Source: an uncultured Anaerolineaceae bacterium (lineage in GTDB: Bacteria > Chloroflexota > Anaerolineae > Anaerolineales > UBA4823). From it: a stretch of 64,000 nucleotides of DNA. The position numbers were made by a program, and so were the translations under genes. This document shows, piece by piece, positions 46,060-49,071 of this stretch (the stretch's first letter is position 1; each line of letters opens with the position of its first letter). Location of the stretch: positions 199,795-263,794 of the forward strand of contig CAZSFD010000001.1 of assembly GCA_964606085.1 (NCBI GenBank), written 5' to 3'. The notes below the pieces were generated by a model that was not told the DNA's origin, made no database searches, and saw only the letters and a list, made by a program, of their open reading frames with translations.

Positions 46060-49000
46060 TCAATCAGACGTTAAGACCTGGGCCAGCAGGCGAATGGGGT
46101 GAATGGCAAGGCGCTGCGTGCCATCTTCGATTTGCGCCTGGCAGGAAACGCCCGCCGCCACCAGCGTGGCCTCGGGCGCAGCCCGCACCGCCGGAAAGAG
46201 CGCCAGTTCGCCCACATTCATCGAAAGGGCATAATGCTCCACTTCGTAGCCGAAAGCCCCGGCCATGCCGCAGCAGCCATCATCAATCACCTGAACGGTG
46301 TAACCGGCGGTCTTAAGCATCGCCACGGTTGCTGCCACACCCACCGGCTTGCCATCGGCGGCAGGAGGCTGGGCTTTTTGGTAGCAGTGGCCGTGCAAAA
46401 GAATGTGGTCATCCGTAATTCGTGATTCGTGATTCGTAATTCGTGATTCGAATAACGAATCACGAATTACGAACTCATCCATCATCCAGGCACGCGCGGC
46501 GATGGATTGGATGCGGGGGTCGGTGGGGAAGAAATCGAGCAATTCGTCGCGCAGGGTGTAGATTTCGGAGGGTTCGAGGCCGACGATGGGCAGCGTGGCC
46601 GAGGGATCGAGGCGGTCAATGGCTTCGACGAGGCGGGCCAGGTGCTTACGCGCCGGTTCGAGGAAACCCTTGGAGATGAGCGTGCGCCCGGCGCCCAGGA
46701 TGGGCAGGTCAATCACCCGCACACCCAACGCCTGCCAGACCTGGCGGGCAGCGCGTTCGGTTTCGGGGTAGAAGTAGCGGTTGAAGGTGTCGGAGAGGAA
46801 GAGTACGGACGAGGCGGGTTGTGTTGCGTGGCTTGCCCTGAGTGCTGTCGAAGGGTGCGTGTTGCGCAGGGGAACGCCGGCGAATTTGGGAAAGGGGCGG
46901 TGGCAGGAAAGGCCAAAGAAGCGTTCGGCGGCGCGGCGCAGCGGCGGGTTGCGCATGACCCAGTTGGCGAGGGGGGCCAAGGCCGCGCCGAGCGGAGCAA
47001 TGACGCCGATGTAGCCAAACAGGTAATCGCGCAGTTTGCGGGGATGCTGACGATAATGCGCGTTCATGAACTCATATTTGAGTTTGGCCATATCCACGGC
47101 GGAGGGGCAATCGGCCTTGCAACCTTTACAGGCCAGGCAGAGGTCGAGGGCGGCGAATGCGTTCGCTTCGGCGGCGGCCCTGTCCCCCGGCTCATCCCCC
47201 ATGGGGGTAAGGGCCGGATTCACCAGCATCGCGCGCAGCAGGTTGGCGCGGCCGCGCGTGCTGTGCATTTCGTCGCGGGTGGTTTGGAAGGAGGGGCACA
47301 TCGTCCCTTCGGCCTTGCGGCAGACGCCCGCCCCATTGCACATTTCGAGAGCGCCGATCAATCCCGCTGCGCCGGGTGCGCCGCCAGCGCGGGAGAAATC
47401 CATCACCGGCTGCCAGCCCAGGTTGGCGGGGAGCGGCAGACGGCGCAGGTCGGCATCCATGGGTGGGGCGTCTACGATCTTGCCGGGGTTGAGGATGTTG
47501 TGGGGGTCAAAGGCGGCCTTGACCTGGCGAAAGGCATCCACAATTTCAGGGCCATAGATGCGCTCCAGCCACTCACCGCGCGCCTGACCGTCGCCATGCT
47601 CACCGCTGATCGTGCCGCCCAGCGAGGCCAGCAGGTCGGCGGCAGCGGCGGCAATCGAACGCATGGCGGCCAAGCCTGCAGGCGTTTTGATATTGAGGAT
47701 CGGGCGCATGTGCAGGCAGCCAGCCGAAGCGTGGGCGTAAAAATCGCCGCGTGTGCCGTGTGCGGCCATGATGCGATCCATCTCGCGCACGAAGCGGCCC
47801 AAATTTTCCACCGGCACGGCCATATCTTCGATGAATGTCACCGGACGCGGCTCGCCCGGCTGCGATTGTAAAATGCCCAGGCCCAGTTTGCGCACGTTCC
47901 ACACGTCGCGCTGCGCCTGGGGTGTTTCGGCCAGCAGCACGTCGCCGGGCAGGGCCAGGGCGCGCTGCTTGAGCAGGGCCAGATCTTCACCGGCAAATTC
48001 GATCACCAGCAGCGCATACTCGCCCGATTGGGCGGGCAGGGCATCCAGCCAGGTGAGGCTGTGGGCGGCGGCGGGGACGGTGTGCGCCAGGCGGATCAGG
48101 TTGTGGGGGATCAGTTCGACAGCGGTAGGCTGATGTTCGAGCAGCGCCGGGACGGCATCGCAGGCGGCAGCCAGATCGGGATAAGCCAACACGGCCAGGA
48201 TGGTGTGCGGCGGCTTCGGCACAAGGTTGAGCGTGACACGGCGGATGACAGCCAGGGTGCCTTCAGAACCAGCGAGCAGGGGGGCGAGGGGGGCGGGGGA
48301 GCCGGGGGGCAGGGGAGATGGGGAGAACAGGTAAGGGAGGTTATACCCTGAGGCGTTGCGCCAGGTGCGCGGCCAGCGCGTGCGCATGGCTTCGGTGTGG
48401 GTTTGGCGCAAGCGGGCAAGGGTGGCGTGAATGCGGGCGAGGGGGTTATTCGATAAATCGTTATTCGATACTTCGTGATTCGATAATTCGTTATTCGAAT
48501 ATCGAATTATCGAATTATCGAATGTCGCCAAACTTCCATCCGCCAAAACCACTTCCGCCGAGAGGATGTGATTGGCGCACATGCCGTAGACGATGGAGTG
48601 TGCGCCGGAGGCGTTGTTGGCAATGCTGCCGCCTACGGTAGCGCGCTCAGCCGAGGCGGGGTCGGGGCCAAATTGCAGACCGTGACGGGCAGCGGCGCGG
48701 TTGAGCGTATTGAGGACGACCCCCGGTTCGACCAGAGCCGTGCGCGCTTCGGGGTCAATGGCGAGGATGTGGTCGAGGTAGCGCGAGCAATCGAGGATCA
48801 GCGCCGGGCCGATGGCCTGCCCCGCCAGCGATGAACCCGCCCCACGCGCCAGAATGGGGATGCGGTGCTGCGCGGCCAGCGCCACCGCCGCAGCGAGGTC
48901 ATCGGGGGTGCGCGGGAAGGCTACGCCAAGCGGCTCAATCTGATAGATGGAGGCGTCGGTGGAATAGAGGAGGCGCGTGGCCGCGTCGGTGCGCAGGGGG

Positions 49001-49071
49001 CCGCTGAAATGGGCTTGCAGGTCGGCGAAGAGATTGGCAAGTTGGGGATGGAGGGGGTGTTCAGGAGGCAT
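46060..49071 (-). CDS. FAD-linked oxidase fused to 4Fe-4S and CCG domains (GlcD-GlcF / YdiJ-like)
   Basis: FAD_binding_4-like N-terminus (PILARGAGSSLAGQAIG). Two ferredoxin-type Cys clusters (CNGAGVCRK...MCPS; CLACKGCKADCPS). C-terminal Cys-rich CCG-type repeats (HGHCYQKA; DDGCCGMAGAFG). Confidence 0.85.
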   Translation of the reverse strand: MPPEHPLHPQLANLFADLQAHFSGPLRTDAATRLLYSTDASIYQIEPLGVAFPRTPDDLAAAVALAAQHRIPILARGAGSSLAGQAIGPALILDCSRYLDHILAIDPEARTALVEPGVVLNTLNRAAARHGLQFGPDPASAERATVGGSIANNASGAHSIVYGMCANHILSAEVVLADGSLATFDNSIIRYSNNELSNHEVSNNDLSNNPLARIHATLARLRQTHTEAMRTRWPRTWRNASGYNLPYLFSPSPLPPGSPAPLAPLLAGSEGTLAVIRRVTLNLVPKPPHTILAVLAYPDLAAACDAVPALLEHQPTAVELIPHNLIRLAHTVPAAAHSLTWLDALPAQSGEYALLVIEFAGEDLALLKQRALALPGDVLLAETPQAQRDVWNVRKLGLGILQSQPGEPRPVTFIEDMAVPVENLGRFVREMDRIMAAHGTRGDFYAHASAGCLHMRPILNIKTPAGLAAMRSIAAAAADLLASLGGTISGEHGDGQARGEWLERIYGPEIVDAFRQVKAAFDPHNILNPGKIVDAPPMDADLRRLPLPANLGWQPVMDFSRAGGAPGAAGLIGALEMCNGAGVCRKAEGTMCPSFQTTRDEMHSTRGRANLLRAMLVNPALTPMGDEPGDRAAAEANAFAALDLCLACKGCKADCPSAVDMAKLKYEFMNAHYRQHPRKLRDYLFGYIGVIAPLGAALAPLANWVMRNPPLRRAAERFFGLSCHRPFPKFAGVPLRNTHPSTALRASHATQPASSVLFLSDTFNRYFYPETERAARQVWQALGVRVIDLPILGAGRTLISKGFLEPARKHLARLVEAIDRLDPSATLPIVGLEPSEIYTLRDELLDFFPTDPRIQSIAARAWMMDEFVIRDSLFESRITNHESRITDDHILLHGHCYQKAQPPAADGKPVGVAATVAMLKTAGYTVQVIDDGCCGMAGAFGYEVEHYALSMNVGELALFPAVRAAPEATLVAAGVSCQAQIEDGTQRLAIHPIRLLAQVLTSD
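46414..46473. repeat. AT-rich CGTGATTCG/CGTAATTCG palindromic element inside the oxidase CDS
   Basis: cgtaattcgtgattcg (46435-46450), aataa, cgaatcacgaattacg (46456-46471) is an exact hairpin, preceded by further cgtgattcg units. Translated as ESRITNHESRITDD. Confidence 0.85.
48446..48524. repeat. AT-rich TTATTCGATAA/CGAATTATCG repeat block inside the oxidase CDS
   Basis: ttattcgataaatcgttattcgatacttcgtgattcgataattcgttattcgaatatcgaattatcgaattatcgaat, translated as IIRYSNNELSNHEVSNNDLSNN. Confidence 0.85.

Follow-up and report, generated by a model that had tools for sequence, protein, structure and literature searches.

Two in-frame palindromic blocks in an Anaerolineaceae oxidase gene are probable gene-less members of a class of hairpin repeats with tandem-unit arms

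How does an intact gene for a conserved enzyme come to carry two AT-rich palindromes within its reading frame? The question is raised by a 64,000-nucleotide stretch of DNA from an uncultured Anaerolineaceae bacterium (assembly GCA_964606085.1, contig CAZSFD010000001.1, positions 199,795 to 263,794), hereafter the window; we call the genome G000. The gene, on the minus strand at 46060..49071, is assigned by its open reading frame (ORF) and Pfam matches to a flavin adenine dinucleotide (FAD)-binding and iron-sulfur (Fe-S)-binding oxidoreductase in which GlcD-like and Fe-S/CCG-like parts are fused. It is open over 1003 codons, intact, and the sole copy in the genome. Pfam places FAD_binding_4 at residues 47-183 (E = 1.8e-42), FAD-oxidase_C at 286-532 (7.2e-50) and a 4Fe-4S dicluster domain (Fer4_17/Fer4_8) at 575-660 (2.8e-07). 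Homologs in Chloroflexota/Anaerolineae carry the name 'FAD-binding and (Fe-S)-binding domain-containing protein'. We compared the gene with its relatives by an alignment with 15 homologs and, codon by codon, with syntenic orthologs. The ORF is conserved end to end, and the motifs HGHCYQK and CCGMAG (C-terminal CCG-type cysteine motif) are invariant across the 16 homologs.

A preliminary description of this DNA had reported two AT-rich palindromic blocks in frame within the gene, and the sequence confirms their positions, the 16-bp arms and the uninterrupted frame. Block 1 (46408..46473, minus strand) is a hairpin of ATTCGNN units that encodes FVIRDSLFESRITNHESRITDD (residues 867-888) in frame. 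Five cgt[ag]att heptamers starting at 46414 are followed by a perfect inverted repeat (46435..46471, no strand assigned), in which exact 16-bp arms at 46435-46450 and 46456-46471 enclose the 5-nt loop aataa. Block 2 (48439..48522, minus strand) is a hairpin encoding FDNSIIRYSNNELSNHEVSNNDLSNNPL (residues 184-211), also in frame, between the FAD_binding_4 and FAD-oxidase_C domains. Its repeat units (48446-48524) measure 8, 7 and 15 nt (ATTCGATA, ATTCGAT and the 15-nt units) and are arranged symmetrically around a central ttcgaa. Both blocks are AT-rich and built from tandem ATTCGNN units. As RNA they are predicted to fold at -35.6 kcal/mol (z = -7.4) and -29.2 kcal/mol (z = -4.1), respectively, and 0 of 200 shuffles fold as stably as either one. 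A search of the window against Rfam matched no family anywhere.

The same kind of DNA is found throughout the genome. The block word TTCGTGATTCGTGA occurs 10 times, compared with roughly 0.01 expected by our own rough calculation. G000 is a 171-contig metagenome assembly of 5.30 Mb (99% complete, 59% G+C, 88% coding), and in it period 7 is the commonest non-triplet period among tandem arrays (n = 657), with another 420 arrays of period 8, a prominence that is unexpected because so much of the genome is coding. A reverse-complement partner lies within 700 nt of 178 of the 1991 arrays of period 7-10, whereas control searches with the unit only reversed or only complemented return 22-24. A screen for arrays of a 7-10-nt unit, followed by a loop and an array of the reverse-complement unit, yields 158 compact hairpins, or about 30 per Mb. 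The earlier view of the blocks as copies from a dispersed family of palindromic repeats is supported. The main unit families are ATTCGNN (~25 loci), GTTGAAG (15), AATCAGC, AACACACGG and AAAGGCGC. The median stem is 18 bp and the median loop 16 nt; the elements span 50-80 nt, vary in their number of units and have no fixed ends. The two arms of a hairpin are 95% complementary, whereas adjacent units within one arm are 80% alike, which indicates that variant units are mirrored across the hairpin.

Taken as a whole, these data are best explained, with a probability that we put near 0.7, if both blocks belong, as gene-less members, to a class of small hairpin repeats whose arms consist of tandem 7-10-nt units. 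Full-length relatives of the same architecture hold in the loop a gene of the PF05635 family, whose product is an Avd-like four-helix bundle. Copies would spread, and old copies would be refreshed, without a transposase, the likely route being template switching or gene conversion, with short homology between arrays as the guide. Such copying would either add sequence, as in block 2, or overwrite an equal length of it, as in block 1. Selection would remove nearly all copies that land in genes, and the survivors would be stop-free, in-frame copies in interdomain linkers, translated as floppy or linker peptides.

The four stand-alone PF05635 genes of G000 all have heptamer or octamer arrays beside them, and three are bracketed on both sides in inverted orientation; the fourth, on C10, is located at the end of its contig, with a hairpin array on the downstream side only. 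There is also a fifth, weak match, to the Avd protein of a normal diversity-generating retroelement (DGR) on contig C153. Across G000 and 40 relatives, our own algorithm finds the order array, gene, reverse-complement array at 18 of 33 PF05635 genes and at 0 of 58 shifted control positions, and by eye nearly all of the genes are flanked by arrays, each by its own unit. One PF05635 gene (C27:11319-11639) lies between two hairpins of ATTCGNN units, which show 86-87% identity to the two window blocks and rank among their best matches. Similarly, in G021, a genome of another genus in the same family, the PF05635 gene L048 has CAGTAAT arms that match the abundant gene-less CAGTNAT hairpins of that genome. 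Hairpins are scarce in sampled genomes that lack PF05635 (2 in 1.09 Mb), but also in two genomes that possess it. The loops of the window blocks are 5-6 nt long and hold no ORF, and so the blocks are at most gene-less derivatives of the PF05635-bearing elements.

Is either block an insertion, as first proposed? For block 2 the proposal stands. Its loop has 58 residues, compared with 43 in the same-genus relative G002, a net gain of 15. An AlphaFold model of the host protein (mean predicted local distance difference test [pLDDT] score 72.6, from a 16-row alignment) gives this loop values of 41-51, against about 85 for the adjoining segments. For block 1 it does not, since the region spans 33 residues between anchors, compared with 30-37 in orthologs, and shows no net change in length. 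The nucleotides of block 1 are still ~46-48% identical, codon by codon, to orthologs without the repeat, and it is modelled as a partly helical linker across which pLDDT drops from 91 to 67. At a third in-frame hairpin, built of GTTGAAG units and encoding KVESSRLKVASFPNLQPSTFN between the M16C_assoc and PreP_C domains of an M16/PreP-like protease (51644..51707, minus strand), the G002 linker is unrelated and ~2 residues shorter, and the linkers of other relatives are 5-8 residues shorter. Hairpins in PheT and Mfd add 11 and 18 residues, respectively, relative to G002.

The protein tree, (P0004,(P0001,P0002,P0003)), groups the window protein with P0002 and P0003 and leaves P0004, the G002 protein, outside with support of 88/89. 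P0002, a 79%-identical ortholog, retains both blocks in decayed form, one as RYSNNELAN, in which 15 nucleotides are identical, and the other as ETYITERATRTT; P0003 shows a trace at most, and G002 has neither. A neutral 60-nt palindrome is unlikely to stay perfect at ~80% protein identity, which suggests that the window copies are recent or have been refreshed. The preliminary description counted segments shared with orthologues in unrelated taxa as a point against its reading. What is found is mixed: the close relative has the decayed blocks just described, whereas more distant ones have different or independent hairpins in the same loop. Stop codons had been flagged in three orthologs; our own translation finds none in the aligned frames of L014 and L019, and L027 shows a frame change.

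The reuse of loops extends to other genes. In G021, a CAGTNAT hairpin occupies the block-2 loop, which likewise measures 58 residues, and hairpins of the families of that genome (CAGTNAT and CGTAAAA) sit in the very PheT and Mfd loops that in G000 are occupied by hairpins of ATTCGNN units. G002 has no hairpins at those PheT and Mfd loops. Overall, G000 and G021 share occupied loops at three of the four sites checked. The block-2 loop also holds an ATTCGNN hairpin in an oxidase ortholog of 49% identity, from another Anaerolineales metagenome-assembled genome (MAG). It is possible that loop reuse reflects a small number of tolerant loops, targeting, or the overwriting of ancient hairpins by the current family of each lineage.

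Each genome has its own dominant family. For example, CAGTNAT arrays return 265 hits in G021 and none in G000, G002 or G024. Seven relatives, each sampled over 200-300 kb, have 0-15 hairpins per Mb, compared with the density of about 30 in G000. Stretches with hairpins of ATTCGNN units number at least 112 and come from Chloroflexota, Acidobacteriota, Gemmatimonadota, Planctomycetota, Cyanobacteria, Gammaproteobacteria, Omnitrophota and other phyla, and 15 of the 80 such loci that were fetched fall within long ORFs and encode similar peptides.

A further case was observed in a CydDC-like fused ABC transporter, where an ATTCGAT hairpin lies between the membrane and ATPase domains in three Anaerolineales/Chloroflexota MAGs (L190:2176-2219, L208:517-560 and L214:5761-5804). 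In a three-way comparison its arms are identical, its loop differs and the flanking coding DNA is 43-70% conserved. About 60 nt downstream of the hairpin in L208 and L214, heptamers of the CCTTCAA type encode TFNLQPSTS as the conserved strand that directly precedes the Walker A motif; at this place L190 shows the usual TFSVPAGKS, of the same length. Native sequence within a conserved domain appears to have been overwritten by heptamers in L208 and L214.

The alternative that survives best, although we regard it as unlikely, is a classic non-autonomous transposon resembling a miniature inverted-repeat transposable element (MITE) or a repetitive extragenic palindrome (REP/REPIN), moved by a transposase acting in trans and in frame by chance. 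This is close to the MITE/REP-like label originally given to the blocks. The dispersal of palindromic copies in families, the near-identical copies in unrelated genes and the presence of the ATTCGNN hairpin in many phyla all agree with it, and the hairpins do resemble MITEs and REP/REPIN sequences in being small, dispersed, hairpin-forming and non-coding. However, direct repeats flanking the hairpins average 1.9 nt, compared with 2.6 nt at shifted control positions, so that there is no target-site duplication above control, and neither the number of units nor the ends are fixed. No transposase was found next to any hairpin, in a survey that covered insertion sequence ends in part, and PF05635, the family of the gene inside such arms, is not a known transposase. 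The sole match to PF01797 (Y1_Tnp-like) is the C-terminal domain of a 572-residue protein that has neither hairpins nor repeats nearby, and it gives no indication of a RAYT. Without extra direct repeats, and with this Y1-like match unrelated to them, the hairpins are not MITEs or REPINs in the defined sense, which are distinguished by the target duplications, fixed termini and cognate transposase or RAYT that were not found here. Furthermore, a discrete insertion should lengthen its host, whereas block 1 and the M16 hairpin replace approximately equal lengths of native sequence. The label therefore has to be abandoned.

In another alternative, each hairpin arose where it stands from a short native seed, through slippage of a 7-nt unit and template switching that perfected a quasi-palindrome, with no copying between loci. 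In its favor, neither block 1 nor the M16 hairpin changes the length of its host protein appreciably, and block 1 keeps its partial nucleotide identity to the orthologs. Cores of the units also pre-exist in conserved junction codons, namely ATTCG (F-V-I-R), TCGAT (F-D) and GAAGG (E-G), and orthologs without a hairpin have them as well. Moreover, heptamer repeats are over-represented in bacteria, for which polymerase slippage has been proposed (PMC4692102). Yet individual unit families are present at 15-25 or more loci of a genome, and unrelated genes have whole hairpins in common: the M16 hairpin and an in-frame hairpin in hypF (C59:21317) match at 93% identity across 61 nt that include the loop, which argues against purely local growth. 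More frequent sharing of derived variants and loops among loci than independent growth would permit is partly seen. In addition, each genome has its own dominant family, and in G000 and G021 the family matches the arms of a resident PF05635 gene. We therefore judge a purely local origin to be improbable. Under the class reading, the junction cores may instead point to homology-guided copying; we take them as a hint only, since they were judged after the fact.

The placement of the hairpins relative to genes bears on whether they serve a purpose. Relative to the 3904 genes called by our own codon-usage gene caller, 65 of the 158 compact hairpins are intergenic, 62 overlap a called gene end, 10 lie near a 5' end and 21 lie well inside a long, high-scoring ORF. 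This last group makes up 13% of the hairpins, compared with the 88% of the DNA that is coding, and none of the 21 ORFs is interrupted. Block 2 was missed by the screen owing to its mixed periods, which makes 21 a lower bound. Only 2 of the 21 hairpin cores inside genes have a length that is a multiple of 3, a figure that is uninterpretable because stem boundaries differ from insert boundaries. Hosts of in-frame hairpins include the oxidase, with its two blocks, the M16/PreP protease, PheT, Mfd and HypF. The pheT gene is essential and single-copy in G000, and its in-frame hairpin argues that such elements are translated. The picture that emerges from gene placement is one of strong purifying selection that leaves few in-frame survivors. 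Design for translatability was considered and rejected, as the hairpins have on average 2.3 of six frames open, compared with 1.7 in shuffled sequences and 3.9 in windows drawn at random from the genome.

Could these DNAs nevertheless have a selected function, either as RNase III or pausing sites in messenger RNA or as flexible linker peptides, rather than being selfish repeats? The CydDC-like arms that are identical in three species, amid less conserved coding DNA, would fit such a role, as would the 95% complementarity of the stems and the position of inserts at domain boundaries. But the close relative G002 manages with an oxidase, pheT and mfd that are free of inserts; most of the same DNA lies between genes; and the peptides are frame-dependent and of low complexity, with no Rfam match for the RNA. 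We consider a selected function very unlikely. Finally, an assembly or binning artefact, or a dead gene, might be suspected in a 171-contig metagenome assembly in which one contig starts with poly-C, but this is barely credible given that the ORF is open and conserved throughout, hairpins that are homologous or analogous turn up in independently assembled relatives, and contigs from the source run reproduce the sequence with zero differences.

Several observations weigh against assigning the blocks to the hairpin class as proposed, or against its particulars. Hairpin density is not shown to be predicted by the number of PF05635 genes: G039 has four such genes and 0 hairpins in 300 kb, and G024 has five genes and 1 hairpin in 300 kb. 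For most unit families of G000 (e.g. GTTGAAG, with ~15 copies) the assembly contains no copy that bears PF05635, and tblastn finds a PF05635-like gene near 0 of the 80 ATTCGNN hairpin loci of other genomes. A simple driver role for the protein is further disfavored by the weak co-divergence of PF05635 proteins and arm units (Mantel rho 0.07, p about 0.1), although a nearest-neighbour test is suggestive, with 4 of 29 pairs matching, compared with 0.7 expected. Movement is inferred from differences between species rather than from filled and empty alleles of one population, a search for sequencing runs having turned up the source metagenome alone, as contigs, and no RNA run. The evidence that the two blocks themselves are translated is indirect, and the microhomology argument concerns three junctions judged post hoc. 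The quality of the structure model is only moderate. Tryptic peptides whose presence would mark translation of the blocks are DSLFESR, ITNHESR and YSNNELSNHEVSNNDLSNNPLAR.

The PF05635 protein may drive the copying, bind the arrays or merely ride inside the hairpins. A bolder proposal, which we offer tentatively and think more doubtful than probable, is that stand-alone PF05635 proteins are the specificity or maintenance factor of a widespread, unrecognized class of transposase-less elements. Their ends would consist of a cognate heptamer in inverted arrays, and gene-less derivatives would be copied into tolerant loops both of protein genes, in frame, and of 23S rRNA, where they correspond to intervening sequences (IVSs), with each lineage overwriting the same loops with its own family.

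These IVSs, known from the 23S rRNA of Coxiella and Leptospira, contain an ORF for an S23p/PF05635 protein and are bounded by a 28-bp stem and excised by RNase III (PMC4990558). As relayed in that article, Ralph and McClelland suggested that IVSs are mobile elements and that the ORF helps them to move. The full-length elements described here are similar in that a PF05635 gene lies in a loop closed by a long stem, whose strands are terminal inverted repeats, and in that a tolerant loop of an essential gene product is occupied. Unlike an IVS, which resides in rRNA and is cut out, the window blocks reside in protein-coding sequence, contain no ORF and are presumably translated. With regard to IVS-type membership, the blocks thus have no PF05635 ORF in the loop, but they do share the arm unit of a PF05635-bearing copy in the same genome.

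PF05635 also resembles Avd, the accessory protein of DGRs (PMC10053308). The gene in the full-length elements belongs to the same fold and family, and DGRs, too, rewrite part of a coding sequence while preserving its length. However, DGRs need a reverse transcriptase (RT) and a template repeat, whereas the stand-alone PF05635 genes have no dedicated RT, save for a convergent neighbour on C10. There (C10:102-1923), the PF05635 gene is accompanied by a 200-nt hairpin of GGTAGTC/TTAGTCA heptamers, which a convergent gene for a 434-residue RT abuts by its 3' end; this is the contig that starts with a poly-C run. On C153 (931-4770) a complete DGR comprises an Avd-like gene, an RT gene and a 767-residue NACHT-like/FGE-type target (C-type-lectin-like), whose C-terminus resembles a variable region. 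An origin of the blocks from a DGR or RT was rejected, because the sole DGR is on C153 and the other RT on C10, neither of them linked to the window, and no RT was found near the window gene.

The closest structural analogue is the inverted GGGAATC pair of Xanthomonas, where 70-75 heptamer repeats form pairs that converge on opposite strands and could adopt stem-loops (Rehm et al., 2015; PMC4692102). The same study treats heptamer repeats of Nostoc and Calothrix, reports that the inverted pairs of Xanthomonas keep their position between species, and reads heptamers of the Xanthomonas/Nostoc type as G-quadruplex formers that are under-represented within coding sequence. Shared with the hairpins of G000 are tandem 7-nt arrays, inverted pairs, a variable number of units and a mostly intergenic location (here, 87% are not well inside genes). 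The units differ in being AT-rich without G-tracts (neither ATTCGNN nor GTTGAAG contains a G3 tract), in the coexistence of many families and in the clear in-frame subset. The heptamer paper makes no mention of a link to PF05635.

As a functional analogue, the nearest match is provided by the Rickettsia palindromic elements (RPEs), which according to PMC10969869 are ~150 bp long and fall into ten families with a conserved consensus (Ogata et al., 2000). In that paper they are described, much like the elements here, as short palindromic repeats, often in frame in unrelated housekeeping genes, that yield extra peptides compatible with the fold. The elements here differ in their length of 50-80 nt, their arms of tandem 7-10-nt units in variable number and their occurrence in many phyla, and some of them overwrite native sequence. 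A search of one literature collection found no paper that joins inverted heptamer arrays, in-frame coding inserts and PF05635.

If the proposed explanation is true, then heptamer over-representation, translated palindromic inserts in essential genes, which have hitherto been a curiosity of Rickettsia, and the orphan '23S rRNA IVS protein' would share one cause. It would also point to a transposase-free mode of DNA copying able to rewrite coding sequence at equal length, and would predict which protein loops tolerate foreign peptides, information of use in protein engineering. We infer both the manner of copying and the role of PF05635. Regardless of mechanism, annotators should expect these hairpins to produce AT-rich islands, odd peptides of low complexity (IRYSN..NNELSNN, KVEGS..TFNLQPST) and orthologs that seem to differ in length, none of which should be taken for errors or pseudogenes.

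Other repeats in the window bear on the earlier suggestion that several enzymes in this stretch carry such inserts, which is supported. The M16/PreP hairpin is in frame and belongs to the class. A MacB/FtsX-type permease gene (35598..35664, minus strand) also carries a repeat in frame, but this 19-bp inverted repeat (GGTTTCGACAGGCTCAACC) belongs to a different dispersed family that is not built of heptamers. Its 18-mer occurs 49 times at 42 loci of the genome. Copies, which also lie at 54032-54055 and 18894-18928, often form inverted pairs whose spacers vary, with extra copies that are partial, and no RAYT is associated with them. A similar word near 55128 had been listed as a further insert. 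The 12-mer and its peptide HESRIT are indeed present in a CoxM-like FAD subunit (55110-55160), but this stretch aligns to the solved structures 4zoh_B and 7dqx_B with a gap of one residue only, and the candidate is rejected as native sequence.

Tandem Repeats Finder locates three more arrangements in the window, none assigned to a strand. Facing octamer arrays of the same architecture (GGATTGGG-like and CAATCCGT-like) occupy the junction of ABC ATPase and permease genes (35946..36068). An intergenic heptamer hairpin (21808..21888) consists of AGGTCAA units, then cgac[ct]tt and CCTTCAC units. A hairpin of 10-nt units (TAAACGCAGA and its reverse complement) at 57156..57257 has a loop of ~40 nt and lies in an AT-rich spacer. 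Elsewhere in G000, inverted heptamer or nonamer arrays bracket small genes that are not PF05635 (C103:7012-7436 and C73:22961-23346) and that look, judged by sequence alone, DUF1330-like and cupin-like. After the oxidase gene (44496-46050), the window has the same two genes as every close relative (loci L001, L003 and L005), one for a protein of ~220 residues without a Pfam match and one for a proline/threonine-rich LysM protein.

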